Assembly: GCA_016840085.1 (NCBI GenBank)
Contig: JAEOTA010000055.1
Location: 31,356-95,355, forward strand
Reading direction: 5' to 3'
Origin: Promethearchaeota archaeon
Lineage (GTDB): Archaea; Asgardarchaeota; Lokiarchaeia; Sigyniarchaeales; SOKP01
DNA: 64,000 nt
The stretch's first letter is position 1; every line of letters starts with the position of its first letter. Made by a program: the position numbers and the translations under genes. Of the stretch, positions 3,391-64,000 are shown one piece after another. Below the pieces are notes generated by a model that was given only the letters and a program-made list of their open reading frames with translations, was not told the origin of the DNA and searched no databases.

Positions 3391-3798
3391 ATGTCTGAAC
3401 CTAATCCACTTAAATCGAAAGGATTTCACCCATTTGGTGATTTAATTGGGTTTGAATTTACTGAATTGAAAAAAGGATATTCTCAATGCGTTTTAAAGAT
3501 AGATAAGAACCACTTTAATCCACATAAAACTGTTCATGGAGGTGTTATGTATTCAATGGCAGATACTGGTATGGGAGGTGCCTTATATTCTTTATTAGAA
3601 AAAGATGAACTGTGTGCAACAGTAGAACTTAAAATTACCTATTTTAAACCTGTTAGAGAAGGAACTATTATTTGTAATACAAAAGTAATTCATAGGGGGA
3701 AATCATTTGGTGTTCTAGAATCGGAAATTATAAATGGTGAAATACTGGTTTCTAAAGCATATGGAACCTTTTCAATTTTTAAGGTTAAAAAAGAGTAA
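3391..3798 (+). CDS. PaaI-family hotdog thioesterase
   Basis: NPHKTVHGGVMYSMADTGMG, TVELKITYFKP. Confidence 0.9.
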   Translation: MSEPNPLKSKGFHPFGDLIGFEFTELKKGYSQCVLKIDKNHFNPHKTVHGGVMYSMADTGMGGALYSLLEKDELCATVELKITYFKPVREGTIICNTKVIHRGKSFGVLESEIINGEILVSKAYGTFSIFKVKKE

Positions 3799-16851: not shown

Positions 16852-18546
16852 ATGAGACGATTTGCCAGTATTGATTTTTTACGTGGTATAGCAATAGCGT
16901 TAATGATCTTTTTGCATACTATCCTTCATGTGTTAGATATTGATACACTACTTAATGAAATAAATAATATCCCCGCTGCTAATATTGTTGCATTTATTGT
17001 ATTACCTTTCTTAGGAGGGTTGGCAGGTTTTTTCTTAATGGTTTCTGCCATTGGAAATATGATAAGTATGTATCGACACTTACAAGCAGGGAGAAGCATT
17101 AGGGACTTAGTTATCAGACAGATAATGGGAGGTGTTTTATTACTAATTTTTGCTATGATTTCTGAGAGTATACTTGGTATTCATGGAGCAATTCCAAATC
17201 TCATGAAAAGTTTAGATGATCCATCTGCTTGGAATTGGCAAGTAATACTTTATCGTGCTTACCACTTTGAAACAATCCATACTATAGCATGGTGTATTAT
17301 CCTAAATGGTGTTGTTCAAGGTATCCTTTCAAGAAAAGGTAGCTGGGAGAATCCTTCAAAGCTAATAAATATTTATCTCCTTTTAATAGGGATTATTATC
17401 GTTCTTACCCCAATAATGTGGTGGCTTGTGGATTTGATAATCCCTGGTTATCCGTGGGCTATAGATCCTGACACAGGGGTTCATGTTCAATATCCATACT
17501 TAGGGAAATCAGAATGGTGGGAATTTATAACACTGTTCTTTTTCAATGCCTTTGCAGGAAGAGAAGAACCGATCTTTCCTTATTTAGCAGTATCTTTTAT
17601 TGGTAGCATCATTGGCATCCGCTTAGCTCAAAAAAGAGAAGAAGTGCCACGAAGATTTCCCAAGCGAACAATGCAATATGGTATTATTATGTTTTTCATT
17701 GGTATCATCGGTCTTATCGTCACGCTTATCCTTTTAATGGACGTAATTGGCATGGATGCAACTTTGAACGTTTATAAGGGACTTGCGTTCCATCGAAATT
17801 GGGTACCTAATAATCCAGATATTAATAACTCTGTGATACTCTATGGATGGTTATTTCAATTCATGGCTTTAAACGGAACAGCTATCTGCCTTATTATGGT
17901 AGTAGTACGTGTCGTAGAATTTCGAGGTCGAGGCAAGGAGTTCGCTGATAAAACTCGATTTATCCGTAGATTTGGGTTTGTTGCCTTCACACTTTACAAT
18001 ATTCAGTGGTTGTATTTTGTTTCCCATTTTATTGTTTCTACATTAATTTATGGTGAACCTTACAAATTGCTTGACTGGGGTGGAGTATTTATTACTATGG
18101 GTATAACATTTTTAATGTTGGAAGGAATCTTACTTCTCTGGGAAAAAATAAAATACACTGGAAGCTTAGAATGGTGTATGGGTACAATTGCAACCCAAAT
18201 CATCCCTGCTAGGAAGTCAGAAAAGAAATGGTGGCAAGCAGGACAATTAAATGTCGAGGAAGCTTTTTATAATGCCGAGTGGTTGAATGTTATTGAGAAG
18301 GACGAGGTCCGTCATGATATTAAGGCAGATTCAAAATTGGCATATAAATTATCTTGGTTCGGTTTTCTATTTGCTCCTATATCATTAATAACATTTTTAA
18401 TAGCAAGAGGATCTGTAAATACAGAACAAGAAAATAAATTCAATAAAAGAGCAAAAATCATTTCATTAGTAGGATTGATATTCTTTTTTGCTTGGATGAT
18501 ACCGTTCCTATTCTTTAGCTTGTCAGATCTCGGAATTTCTCTATAA
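16852..18546 (+). CDS. Multi-pass membrane protein, HGSNAT/DUF1624-like acyltransferase
   Basis: RFASIDFLRGIAIALMIFLH N-terminal motif, PIFPY, many TM helices. Confidence 0.65.
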   Translation: MRRFASIDFLRGIAIALMIFLHTILHVLDIDTLLNEINNIPAANIVAFIVLPFLGGLAGFFLMVSAIGNMISMYRHLQAGRSIRDLVIRQIMGGVLLLIFAMISESILGIHGAIPNLMKSLDDPSAWNWQVILYRAYHFETIHTIAWCIILNGVVQGILSRKGSWENPSKLINIYLLLIGIIIVLTPIMWWLVDLIIPGYPWAIDPDTGVHVQYPYLGKSEWWEFITLFFFNAFAGREEPIFPYLAVSFIGSIIGIRLAQKREEVPRRFPKRTMQYGIIMFFIGIIGLIVTLILLMDVIGMDATLNVYKGLAFHRNWVPNNPDINNSVILYGWLFQFMALNGTAICLIMVVVRVVEFRGRGKEFADKTRFIRRFGFVAFTLYNIQWLYFVSHFIVSTLIYGEPYKLLDWGGVFITMGITFLMLEGILLLWEKIKYTGSLEWCMGTIATQIIPARKSEKKWWQAGQLNVEEAFYNAEWLNVIEKDEVRHDIKADSKLAYKLSWFGFLFAPISLITFLIARGSVNTEQENKFNKRAKIISLVGLIFFFAWMIPFLFFSLSDLGISL

Positions 18547-34488: not shown

Positions 34489-34995
34489 TTAAGGGACAAA
34501 AGTTTGAACGAGTAATGTACTTGAAAAAATTTCGTTATTAATATCGCTTCCGAATATACTAATAGTTACATTATGAGCTCCAGCGGAAACTGTATCTAAT
34601 GACATTTGAAGTGAAACAGGTACATCAATTCTATCACCCATTGTATGAATAGACCACCACGGATAAGTAGGGCCAGATAACACATCACCATCTAACACGA
34701 AATTGAGTTGAATATATGAATTTGTTCCAGCTTGCACAGCGGCCTTGGTATTAAAATGAAAATATACCGATTCTCCAGAGCTTACAGTAAAATCGATTGT
34801 TAATGTATCGATTTTTATTGTTGTGGAAATAGGATTAGTTTTCTTAGAGCTATAATCGAATTTATACCAAGTATTTTTAATACCGGATCCTTCATCTGTA
34901 GGTGCTACCGCAAAAAATATTTGATACAATCCAAGTCCGAGAGCACCAATTGCTATTAAAAGGGCTAAAACGGCTAAACCTGAAGATTTTGCCAT
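34489..34995 (-). CDS. Exported or membrane-anchored beta-sandwich protein
   Basis: N-terminal hydrophobic helix; Ser/Thr-rich all-beta body ending GAHNVTISI...TLLVQ. Confidence 0.7.
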   Translation of the reverse strand: MAKSSGLAVLALLIAIGALGLGLYQIFFAVAPTDEGSGIKNTWYKFDYSSKKTNPISTTIKIDTLTIDFTVSSGESVYFHFNTKAAVQAGTNSYIQLNFVLDGDVLSGPTYPWWSIHTMGDRIDVPVSLQMSLDTVSAGAHNVTISIFGSDINNEIFSSTLLVQTFVP

Positions 34996-59990: not shown

Positions 59991-60206
59991 TTAGAAGTAT
60001 TTAATAGCTAAAAGAATATCGTCCCGTGTTATTTTTTTACGTTTTGAGTGTTTGGTTAATGTTAAAGCTGTTTTTGTCAATTTCTCAGCAGATGATCCCA
60101 ACCATTCAACCAATTCATTTACAGCATCACGAGCAACGATAATGGCCCCATTATGTTTCATTAATCTTCTAATAGGACTCCAACTTATATATTCAGAACC
60201 TGCCAT
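59991..60206 (-). CDS. Archaeal histone (HMf-like histone fold)
   Basis: PIRRLMK..GA..VA.DA...L...A..L...A.....HSKRKKI...DI.LA; strong GGAGG RBS. Confidence 0.93.
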   Translation of the reverse strand: MAGSEYISWSPIRRLMKHNGAIIVARDAVNELVEWLGSSAEKLTKTALTLTKHSKRKKITRDDILLAIKYF

Positions 60207-60734
60207 TTTTTATTCCTCCACTTTTTCAATTATTTACTTAACTTTTTAATAAATTTTATTATTTTTTAAGAGTATGTTACATTGATATGCAGCTTTTAGA
60301 TATTTAAAGATTCTTGTTCGCACTTAATTTTATGGAAAAAAAAATAAAAAAAATTATACGACTAAATTCGAAATTATGAAGTTGATCAATCTCGTGGAAG
60401 TTAGGAATTTTCTATTGATTTATTTGCTATTTGGTCTAATATTTACAAATACGTATAAATAAATTTTTTACTTATTTTTCATAAAATCGTATAATTGATT
60501 TTTAGAACAAAAGAAAATCTCAATGGTTGATAGAAAATGGCTCAAGACTATGAGTCTGATGGTAATCCTTAATAATTAATATATATTCCCCTTTAATCCT
60601 AATTTTCTTCAATTACTTTCTATTTTTTTTTTTTGAATCGAATAGGACGATTATAGAAAACTTTTTTAGTCTCCATATAATAAAATATGTTATAAATTGA
60701 AAATATGCTAGTAAAACTAGCTATAATAAAAAGA

Positions 60735-60993
60735 ACTCAATATGGGTGAATTCGTTTGATTTTTTATGAAAATGATCTTCCTAACTTAATTCATGCTATA
60801 TTGAGTATCTCATTTATGGAAGAGTCTAATAACTGTCGGGTTATTAGATCACAAGATGTACCAGCAATTTTTTTTAAAGACTTCAATTCAATGGTACATC
60901 ATTGGCTACATCATTAATAGTTCCGATGAACTAAAGTAATATTTGTTATTGATTGTTCATCGGAATTTAAACAAACTGAACTATTTCAGTTTG
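60735..60993 (+). promoter_or_regulatory. Structured 5' leader of the his operon (candidate attenuator)
   Basis: Five consecutive inverted repeats: 60735-60806, 60824-60849, 60855-60900, 60919-60967, 60972-60993; TTATAAA at 60690-60696 upstream. Confidence 0.7.
60816..60917 (+). CDS. Putative His leader peptide MEESNNCRVIRSQDVPAIFFKDFNSMVHHWLHH (or short form MVHHWLHH from 60891)
   Basis: CAT CAT TGG CTA CAT CAT TAA TAG; TAA ends 87 nt before the hisIE start. Confidence 0.7.
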   Translation: MEESNNCRVIRSQDVPAIFFKDFNSMVHHWLHH

Positions 60994-61004
60994 GGGGGTA
61001 TAAT

Positions 61005-61913
61005 ATGTTAATATTGAAAATAGATATGAAAGATCTTGAACAGATTGGAGGGCTAAGGGAGTTCATAGATGGAGTATTTATAAAACGAGGTTGGGACTTA
61101 TATATTACTCTTATTTTTAAGGCTAATAACAACAGTATTACAGCACTGATAAAAGATGGAACCCTCAAGGATGCTTCTAAAAAAATTGAATTAGGAATTA
61201 ACCTAGAGCCCAATCAAAAAGAGCTAAAATCGCTACTAAAAAAGCACGGGATAAATAGTTTAGAACTTGAATCTTATAATGAGAATGAGATTATCAACTT
61301 CAACTTAAAGATGGATTATTCACTCATAGACAATCAATTGGTAACAATTTTAAATTTTGAGAAATCAAACGGATTAATTCCAACAGTGGTACAAGACCAA
61401 AATAATAACGTTTTAATGCTCGCATATTCATCAAAAGAATCGTTAAAGCATACTATTAAAACCAAAAAAGCGACCTACTTCAGTAGATCACGAAATAGTC
61501 TTTGGATAAAAGGGGAAGAATCGGGTAATTTTCAAATCGTGAAAAGAATTTTTTATGATTGTGATGCTGATTCATTGTTGTTCACAGTAAAACAAATAGG
61601 TGTTGCATGTCATACGGGATCTTATTCTTGTTTTCGAAATATGAAATTTTCAATAAAGAATCTTTATGATATAATTAATGATCGCATTGAAAACTATGGA
61701 ATAAGAGAATCCTATAGTAAAAGACTTGCAGAAGATAATAATTTATTATTATCCAAAATTCAAGAAGAAAGTCTGGAATTGATAAATTATACTGATAGAG
61801 ATAATTTAATCTGGGAGATTGCTGATTTAACATATTTTATCCTTGTTTTAATGGCTACAAATAAAATAAATCCTGATGAAATTGTAAATGAATTATGGAG
61901 GCGAAATAAATGA
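61005..61913 (+). CDS. hisIE: Bifunctional phosphoribosyl-AMP cyclohydrolase/phosphoribosyl-ATP diphosphatase with N-terminal extension
   Basis: [38 protein letters not shown]; KIQEE, WEIADL. Confidence 0.93.
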
Positions 61914-62929
61914 AAAAAGAGTTACAAAAATCATTTCCAAAATATAAAACAAGGCAGGTAAGGCTCGCTATTCCTTCAAAGGGAAGAATGGAAAGCGAAA
62001 CTCAGGAATTCTTAAGGTCCTGCGGATTTATTATACAAAGAAACAACAGACAATATATTGGATCAATAGAGGGTCCCATTAATCTCCAACTAGTTTATCA
62101 ACGTCAAGTAGATATTGTTAGGGGGGTATTAAATGGATCACTAGAAATGGGAATAGTTGGCTACGATTTAGTTCTTGAATATTTACCCGAATATAATAAT
62201 GAGTTAATAGTTATACATGATGCGCTAAATTTTGGAAAATGCAGCCTTGAAATAGCTATTCCTGAAGAATGGCCTGAAAATTCAATTGATGAGATTAAAC
62301 AGAATAGAAAGGTAATTCGTGTTGCTACAAAATTTCCAAAGCTTACTAGGCAATTCCTAAATTCAGTTGATATAACTTATGAATTAATTGAGGGAAATGG
62401 TTCTCTTGAGGTATATCCAGAATTGGAATATAGTGATATTATAGTTGATCTTGTGTCAACAGGCCAGACATTAAAGGATAATCGTTTAAGAAGGATAAAT
62501 GGAGGTCAAATAATGACTTCTGAATCTGTACTTATAGGTAATCGTACATCACTGAAGAATGAGGCTATTTTAAAAATTGCTCGTGGATTGATTGAATATA
62601 TCGAAGCGACCTTAAGAGCCCAAAAATTTGTATCAGTTTTCGTAAACATGAGAGGAGAAAGTCGTGAAGAAATTGCTAAAGCAATTTTCTCTAAAGAAGG
62701 GCTTGAAGGTTTACAAGGACCTACAATATCTGCGGTTTTTACCAAAAATAGAGAAAAGATGTTTGCAGTTCACGTTATTGTCGAAAGAAAAAATTTACAA
62801 CAAGCGATAAGAAATCTACGAGAAATTGGTGGAAGTGGCGTAGTTGTTGCTCCAGCACTTTATATTTTTGAGGAGGAACCATTGAGATATATAAAATTAT
62901 TAAAGAATTTGGGGATGGATAGTGATTAG
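61910..62929 (+). CDS. hisG: ATP phosphoribosyltransferase, long form
   Basis: [34 protein letters not shown]-terminal regulatory domain; ATGA overlap with hisIE. Confidence 0.96.
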
Positions 62930-64000
62930 AGTATACACAACAGATGAGGCAAGAAATATTATATTAAAAAGAGAATTTATCTTCTCAAATCCAGAATTCA
63001 GTAACAACAATGTAAGCCCAGAGGAAATTGTAAGAAAAATTGTTAAAGACGTCCGGGAAAGGGGTGATCAAGCGCTCAAAGATTGGACTTTAAAGTTAGA
63101 TAAAGTGAATATAGACCAATTTGAAATAGTTAATATTGATTTTGAAGAGTGTCTCTCAACTATTAATCCGGAGTTGAAAAAAGCTTTAGAAATAGCCAGC
63201 GAGAGAATCTATAAATTTCACATGTCGCAACCAATTTTATCATGGATGAATTACAACCTTGGAGGACAATTAGGTCAAATAATTAAACCAATTAAAAAGA
63301 TAGGAATTTATATTCCAGGAGGTAAAACTCCTTTGTTTTCCTCAATATTAATGACAGCCATACCCGCTGTCGTAGCAGGAACTAAAGAGATCATCTTTGC
63401 TTCTCCCCCCGAAAATAACGGAACTTTGTCTAACATTATCCTCGCAACTTGTGGATTGATTAAACGGTTTGGTGTAAATATTCGTCTATTTAAAATGGGT
63501 GGTGCTCAAGCTATTGCTGCCATGGCATTCGGAACTGAGCAAGTTCCTAATGTAGAAAAAATTGTGGGTCCTGGAAATATTTATGTAAATTTGGCTAAAA
63601 AAGAAGTATATGGGATTGTAGGAATTGACGGAATATATGGGCCAACTGAAGTCATAATAATTGCTGATGAAACAGCAAATCCTTCATTAGTTGCTTCTGA
63701 TCTACTAGCTCAAGCAGAACATGATTCTTTAGCAATTCCTATATTAATAACTTCTGATCAAAATTTAATCTCATACGTCAAAAACGAGTTAAAAAGGCAA
63801 ATTATGGATCTGGACAGAAATGTAATCATTAAGAACTCTCTTCAAAATAAAGGTGGCATTATTTTGACAAATTCATTAGAAGAATCAATTGAAATTTCAA
63901 ATGAGTTTGCGCCCGAACATCTTTCGCTTATGATAAAAGACCCTATGACAGTTTTAAATCAAATAGAAAATGCTGGAGGAATTTTTATTGGAGAAAATTC
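62922..64000 (+). CDS. hisD: Histidinol dehydrogenase, 3'-partial (absent from ORF track)
   Basis: GTG at 62922: VIRVYT...VRERGDQAL, YIPGG, GGAQAIAAMAFGT, VGPGN, GPTE, DLLAQAEHD, APEHL. Confidence 0.95.
   Translation, partial: MIRVYTTDEARNIILKREFIFSNPEFSNNNVSPEEIVRKIVKDVRERGDQALKDWTLKLDKVNIDQFEIVNIDFEECLSTINPELKKALEIASERIYKFHMSQPILSWMNYNLGGQLGQIIKPIKKIGIYIPGGKTPLFSSILMTAIPAVVAGTKEIIFASPPENNGTLSNIILATCGLIKRFGVNIRLFKMGGAQAIAAMAFGTEQVPNVEKIVGPGNIYVNLAKKEVYGIVGIDGIYGPTEVIIIADETANPSLVASDLLAQAEHDSLAIPILITSDQNLISYVKNELKRQIMDLDRNVIIKNSLQNKGGIILTNSLEESIEISNEFAPEHLSLMIKDPMTVLNQIENAGGIFIGEN

Follow-up and report, generated by a model that had tools for sequence, protein, structure and literature searches.

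In bacteria, the coupling between transcription and translation finds its classic regulatory role in leader-peptide attenuation. In hisL of the enterobacteria, a hairpin contains the histidine codons and a helix is able to shut the ribosome-binding site (RBS) of the leader, and both features are paralleled in the archaeal leader described here. Leader attenuators that depend on a factor and have no terminator are represented in bacteria by mgtL. To our knowledge, archaea have no Rho, and FttA would substitute for it. In orf34 of Salmonella speF (PMC6386406) and in the mycobacterial cys leaders (PMC1262725, 10.1101/834739), an upstream open reading frame (uORF) with cognate codons functions without an intrinsic terminator, and the position of the ribosome selects the helix. 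In the actinobacterial LEU element (PMC1262725), cognate codons precede a compact fold lying directly against the Shine-Dalgarno (SD) sequence, and the Bacillus hisZ/hisS* leader (PMC2965389) provides a short ORF with His codons outside the Proteobacteria. For archaea, no leader-peptide attenuation was found in the literature searched, which covered few subscription or older papers. [quoted passage not shown]

The leader analyzed here precedes a his operon of Lokiarchaeia in a window of 64,000 nucleotides (contig C50; host genome 4.68 Mb, 29.5% GC). It resembles the enterobacterial hisL (RF00514) in having a leader ORF with His codons before its stop and the first his gene downstream. However, it has no GC-rich hairpin with a U-tract, no terminator/antiterminator pair was found in it, it is three times longer (36-62 codons), and it belongs with an archaeal promoter and RNA polymerase. 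The RF00514 His_leader model had no match in the host genome, with a positive E. coli control, and an Rfam scan of the leader returned chance matches only. It shares the cognate-codon uORF and the lack of an intrinsic terminator with the speF and cys leaders, but no conserved anti-SD helix was found in it, and the amino acid and the domain of life are different. Unlike the LEU element, it has no conserved pairing of the codon run to the SD or AUG, and no pseudoknot was seen; unlike the Bacillus leader, it has no intrinsic terminator of the kind through which that leader was found. Judged by its sequence, the his leader resembles a leader-peptide attenuator but falls outside the classical hisL type. 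The features of the locus, in window coordinates, are as follows.

60662-60669, + strand: TATA-like T-run TTTTTTAG, probable promoter box; same motif 270-350 nt 5' of hisIE in 20/27 loci
60735-60742 with 60799-60806, + strand: helix P1, enclosing the leader SD and start codon; 90% paired, two-sided changes in 2 pairs; in divergent clades the helix is weak or lacking
60744-60749, + strand: leader SD, GGGTGA
60756-60917, + strand: His leader ORF, 53 codons, TTG start; His codons at 60897, 60900, 60909 and 60912; stop TAA 60915-60917, second stop TAG 60918-60920
60825-60848, + strand: helix P2, within the leader ORF; 84% paired, 3 two-sided changes
60852-60903, + strand: helix P3, 3' arm made of the first His-His pair, candidate pause hairpin; 87% paired
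60918-60968, + strand: hairpin A, 5' arm running from the leader stop codon; 92% paired, 8/14 pairs two-sided
60972-60993, + strand: hairpin B, abutting the hisIE SD; 93% paired, 3 two-sided changes
60993-60999, + strand: hisIE SD, a G-rich box conserved in 27 loci
61005-61913, + strand: hisIE (PRA-CH and PRA-PH, N-terminal extension of ~110 aa), by gene identification
61910-62929, + strand: hisG, long form, by gene identification; nearest named non-Asgard relatives in Chloroflexota and plants
62922-64000, + strand: hisD, truncated by the contig end, by gene identification

The his transcript presumably starts near 60690. An archaeal histone gene (59991-60206, - strand) lies about 800 nt upstream, divergent from the his promoter region.

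A first-pass annotation of this DNA had described a frame encoding MVHHWLHH from ATG 60891, closed by TAA TAG and in frame with ATG 60816, upstream of hisIE, hisG and hisD. The sequence and coordinates of this frame were verified, and gene identification in the window confirmed the order hisIE-hisG-hisD 3' of the leader. The extent of the leader had to be revised. Neither ATG 60891 nor ATG 60816 is conserved, and both were rejected as starts in favor of TTG 60756, which corresponds to the ATG at which orthologous leaders begin. The annotation had thereby missed the first two thirds of the leader, with P1, P2 and P3. Orthologous leaders start with ATG, TTG or GTG, which in most of them follows a GTGA-type box by 6-8 nt, and GTGA is the commonest SD word of the host genome.

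A class-wide search found HisG of the window's type in 32 of 161 genomes. Genomes that share the leader motif bear Promethearchaeota names, in line with the Asgard host given in the first-pass annotation. In 16 genomes and one metagenome contig, the operon starts with a hisIE of the window's kind and is preceded by a frame ending in 3-8 His codons, with its stop 75-92 nt before hisIE. The leader-associated HisIE proteins form one clade, and ten further members, picked clade-wide before their DNA was inspected, all had the leader (10/10). The His-ended leader was present in 27/27 loci of this Promethearchaeota/Lokiarchaeia hisIE clade, the window and 26 related loci, which are not independent of one another and span three genera, with HisIE identity down to ~46-50%. 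In Loki his operons of the other subtype (first gene ~400 aa), no His leader was found upstream; a divergent gene leaves ~200-300 nt in most of them. Two mosaic operons, L133 (G115) and L137 (G150), join a hisIE of the leader type to a hisG of the type found in the leaderless clade (55-56% identity to the window hisG), which suggests recombination between Loki operons.

The reading frame of the leader and its His codons bear the marks of selection. Over the 27 loci, the leader frame has no stop in 1349 codons, whereas the other two frames have 106 and 196. His occupies 125 of the 270 last-ten codons vs 10 of 1079 elsewhere in the leader, and the rest of the peptide drifts freely, with a length of 36-62 codons where the start is clear. 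The His residues are kept in frame despite CAC/CAT exchange, divergent clades using CAC as well as CAT, and reach up to 8 in succession. At least four His within the last 12 codons occurred in only 3 of 16,383 intergenic frames of the host genome, and a four-His cluster in 1 of its 472 SD-started uORFs, the his leader itself.

The RNA of the leader folds unusually well. The segment 60860-61020 was more stable than its shuffled versions (z = -3.92, 0/200 shuffles), and the 80 nt before the hisIE SD reached -30.4 kcal/mol, compared with a mean of -7.1 over 2016 gene-upstream regions of the same genome; 0.05% of these folded equally well, that is one region, most likely the his leader itself. Five helices recurred among the relatives: P1, P2, P3, hairpin A and hairpin B. 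In an alignment of 22 sequences, 89.6% of the helix cells were paired and 18 of 48 pairs carried two-sided changes, exceeding 500/500 shuffles and every slid control. The P3 duplex, seen in 25/27 loci, has an energy of -10.1 kcal/mol compared with -3.3 for shuffled sequences. Hairpin A (60921-31/60955-65) and hairpin B (60972-80/60985-93), followed by the G-run at 60993-99, were located where that annotation had put them; hairpin A extends to 13 bp (60919-31/60955-67) and has an inner 6-bp stem, and only the first G of the hisIE SD falls in hairpin B. For both hairpins, own-species pairing beats cross-species pairing (A: p < 0.0005). These comparisons of sequences indicate that the feature is real and conserved, and probably functional.

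To follow the ribosome, we placed a footprint of assumed size, -18 to +12 from the A site, at the stop and at every His codon in turn, using equilibrium folding, which does not reach co-transcriptional kinetics. Hairpin A was intact with a stall at the first His pair, kept its inner stem at the last pair, and was lost at the stop. It alone differed between the stall and stop states in silico; hairpin B was folded at every position modelled. The cheapest 25-nt opening in the spacer cost 7.1 kcal/mol in the stall state vs 4.5 at the stop and was lower at the stop in 22/27 loci, a difference partly built in by masking one arm. Three hallmarks of ribosome-mediated attenuation were found in the sequences and models: a uORF with an RBS, a start and a conserved open frame, cognate codons near its stop, and a conserved helix that depends on ribosome position. 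The proposal of the first-pass annotation that a His-codon leader peptide controls the his operon through stalled ribosomes agrees with the 27/27 loci and with the frame and His statistics, which show the leader to be under selection, and we consider it very likely that the leader senses His in this way.

The host genome also carries cognate leaders for Trp (two), Leu and Phe, of which those of trpB2, leuA and pheS recur in relatives.

Contig C81, 42462-42519 (L168:1963-2020), + strand: Trp leader 128 nt upstream of trpB2, with 4 Trp among 18 codons
Contig C46, ~18058-18111 (L250), + strand: second Trp leader, 433 nt upstream of trpD in the trp operon, with 3 Trp among 17 codons
Contig C69, ~34686-34796 (L248), + strand: Leu leader 94 nt upstream of leuA, with 36 codons; 20/20 loci of the genus
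Contig C78, ~204 nt upstream of 222291 (L272), - strand: Phe leader upstream of pheS-pheT and a pheA-like gene, with 29 codons; 19/21 loci

The first-pass annotation had suggested a look for cognate leaders at the trp, leu, thr and ilv operons of this genome; they were present for Trp (trpB2, trpD) and Leu (leuA), and none was seen before ilvC, leuS or ileS. argJ was not found in the host genome. A W-Q-W-P-W-type motif of the trpB2 leader is kept in most of the Lokiarchaeia trpB2 loci examined. Many Trp leaders have a T6 run ~30 nt past the stop, and the modelled accessibility of this U-run was unchanged by ribosome position. The Leu leaders have, like hairpin A, a pyrimidine-rich hairpin running from the stop, which ends ~30 nt short of the start codon (20/20 loci), and a CTTGGC motif is conserved downstream of the Phe leaders. 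At 128-433 nt from their genes, the Trp leaders are too far away for RBS control. The stop-proximal helix is shared and often far from the RBS, and it therefore favors a decision at transcription.

With respect to how such a decision could be executed, the first-pass annotation had noted the absence of a U-tract terminator, and this holds: hairpin B is AU-rich, with 3-4 U inside its stem. Because the host genome has no enrichment of hairpins after gene ends, termination at an intrinsic hairpin is unlikely, and hairpin B was rejected as such a terminator. Exposure of a U-tract in hairpin A was rejected as well; the U content of the his spacer is 0.39 vs 0.40 in the background, and no U4 tract is conserved in A. 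No conserved helix was found to compete with hairpin B as an antiterminator overlapping a terminator. FttA (aCPSF1) binds ~36 nt of nascent U-rich RNA, and a coupled ribosome has been proposed to exclude it (PMC11616081); a Lokiarchaeota aCPSF1 can replace the enzyme of M. maripaludis (PMC13675443). FttA scored over the cut-off in 136/161 genomes of the class and in 12/16 leader-bearing genomes. In the host assembly, full-length FttA/aCPSF1 was not found, only a 434-aa form on contig C4 without the N-terminal part, and this is probably an assembly gap.

We favor co-transcriptional attenuation in which hairpin A is the ON helix and FttA/aCPSF1 the terminator, because the sister leaders share the stop-proximal helix, often distant from the RBS; we put its probability at roughly 0.45. 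The first ribosome would load while P1 is still open around the leader SD. It would then follow RNA polymerase, perhaps releasing a polymerase pause at P3. P1 could in this way be a single-round gate on leader translation. If His were scarce, the ribosome would stall on the His codons and hairpins A and B would fold, leaving the 87-nt spacer nearly all double-stranded up to the open hisIE SD. A new ribosome would load there and the operon would be transcribed (ON). If His were plentiful, the ribosome would stand at the stop during synthesis of the spacer and block hairpin A, and the exposed A arm would offer single-stranded RNA to the termination nuclease (OFF). Alternatively, the exposed arm would trap the hisIE RBS and the untranslated RNA would be terminated by polarity. 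The first-pass annotation had left the choice between translational and factor-dependent control; no conserved anti-SD was found for the former, and the FttA-dependent output is our best model.

The same sensor could instead act on translation, which we regard as possible but clearly less probable. An intact hairpin A would mean an open hisIE SD/AUG, and the RBS would be trapped when a terminating ribosome removes A or when free His codons pair with the AUG region. The effect would be carried downstream by the overlapping reading frames of hisIE, hisG and hisD, as in the mycobacterial Cys leaders or the LEU element (10.1101/834739, PMC1262725). The constant spacing of 75-92 nt from stop to hisIE and the position of hairpin B, always fixed against the SD, look more like RBS control than like termination. 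In a local window, opening of the RBS cost 5.6 kcal/mol with the ribosome at the stop vs 4.5 in the stall state, an average shift of ~1 kcal/mol with a partner that varies by species, and bases of the A loop or A 3' arm pair with the RBS in about half of the loci; the His codons pair weakly with the AUG region. The G057/L156/L157 clade (L128:215-310) has 7-8 consecutive His and an M-M-C-E mini-frame after the leader stop, and its post-stop RNA pairs directly with the hisIE start codon region, which attenuation through FttA does not explain. However, anti-RBS pairings showed no conserved register or co-adaptation (p = 0.21-0.77), accessibility of the hisIE SD/AUG in the whole leader was nearly flat across ribosome states, and the host genome's own copy showed no RBS change. 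Hairpin A would also refold after the ribosome departs, and the sister Leu and Trp leaders cannot operate by such a route. Three specific pairings were tried and rejected: the A 3' arm with the B 5' arm, as in ermC, was weak and without co-adaptation (p = 0.31); the His codons with the AUG region, as in LEU, were no better in their own species than across species (p = 0.77); and a ribosome queue freeing an upstream anti-SD made no clear change in the models.

It is unlikely that the leader does not sense His at all, the frame instead encoding a short metal-binding peptide with a His tail, or the RNA binding a protein or ligand and the His codons being kept for pairing in P3. The CATCAT of the first His pair does form part of P3, and changes to the codons of the LEU element reportedly left regulation unaltered (PMC1262725). 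Against this, the sequence and length (36-62 aa) of the peptide drift except for His, the His residues stay in frame through CAC/CAT exchange with up to 8 in a row, and in this genome the Trp, Leu and Phe codons of the sister leaders each correspond to the operon that follows.

Slightly less probable still is an output through mRNA stability with the same sensor, in which a stalled ribosome or the A and B fold would block 5'-3' or endonucleolytic decay, as with RNase G in Salmonella speF (PMC6386406). Such an output would suit hairpins this stable in a genome without 3' hairpins, but no cleavage-site motif was identified, and P1 would point to a single early passage of ribosomes over the leader, not to protection renewed many times.

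The switch proposed in the first-pass annotation, in which a stall frees 60916-23 to invade hairpin B and open the SD, is very improbable: the 8-bp match between 60916-23 and 60978-85 is perfect in the host genome and its flanking pairs recur (76.7% of cells paired), but 60916-23 overlaps the 5' arm of hairpin A and would stay paired there while a ribosome waits at the first His codons, and forcing the helix breaks A at a cost of 10.6 kcal/mol; among 22 sequences, two central pairs of the eight fail in 12-13, and the closest relatives, G145 and L038, belong to these (position 60919 is G in the window and A in G145), and there is no co-adaptation (p = 0.59). Hairpin B as an RBS-occluding OFF fold toggled by the ribosome fails likewise, since B is folded in every modelled state and SD/AUG accessibility is flat.

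The operon fits acquisition by transfer, as it is patchy and in differing neighborhoods among relatives, and the genome has a second, distant and leaderless hisG-hisD. The nearest named HisG relatives outside Asgard are in Anaerolineae (45% identity), other Chloroflexota, Cyanophora and plants. The second his set consists of the distant hisG (C9:123699-124673), which has no His leader 5' of it, with hisD and a hisC-like gene; hisF and hisH are on C41. hisB was not found in the assembly, in which the contig stops within hisD, and its absence is probably an assembly gap; in the relative G023 the operon continues with hisC-, hisB-, hisH- and hisA/F-like genes, as judged by translations. The N-terminal extension of HisIE (61005-61335, ~110 aa) has no Pfam match, longer relatives match the HisA/F family (PF00977) there, and the extension may be a decayed remnant of that family. 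In L243 (~3530-3690), from a GC-rich and apparently bacterial relative, hisG is preceded by a short frame containing two His codons and by a textbook intrinsic terminator (GC stem and T7); by eye the frame has no sequence likeness to the Loki leader.

Taken together, these data suggest that Lokiarchaeia probably gauge amino-acid supply with the ribosome. More tentatively, and with the odds somewhat against it, leader-peptide gauges for His, Trp, Leu and Phe would extend over the genome, a helix at the stop codon gating the CPSF73-family nuclease FttA. If true, attenuation would here dispense with an intrinsic terminator and rely on the archaeal counterpart of the nuclease that forms 3' ends in eukaryotes, and the gauge would have been fitted even to a his operon with a bacterial-type HisG. 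Since the switch is small and natural, and its codons and covarying helices are defined, the leader would make coupling and the exclusion of FttA by the ribosome testable in a tractable archaeon, and it would represent amino-acid sensing through a uORF in close kin of the eukaryotes.
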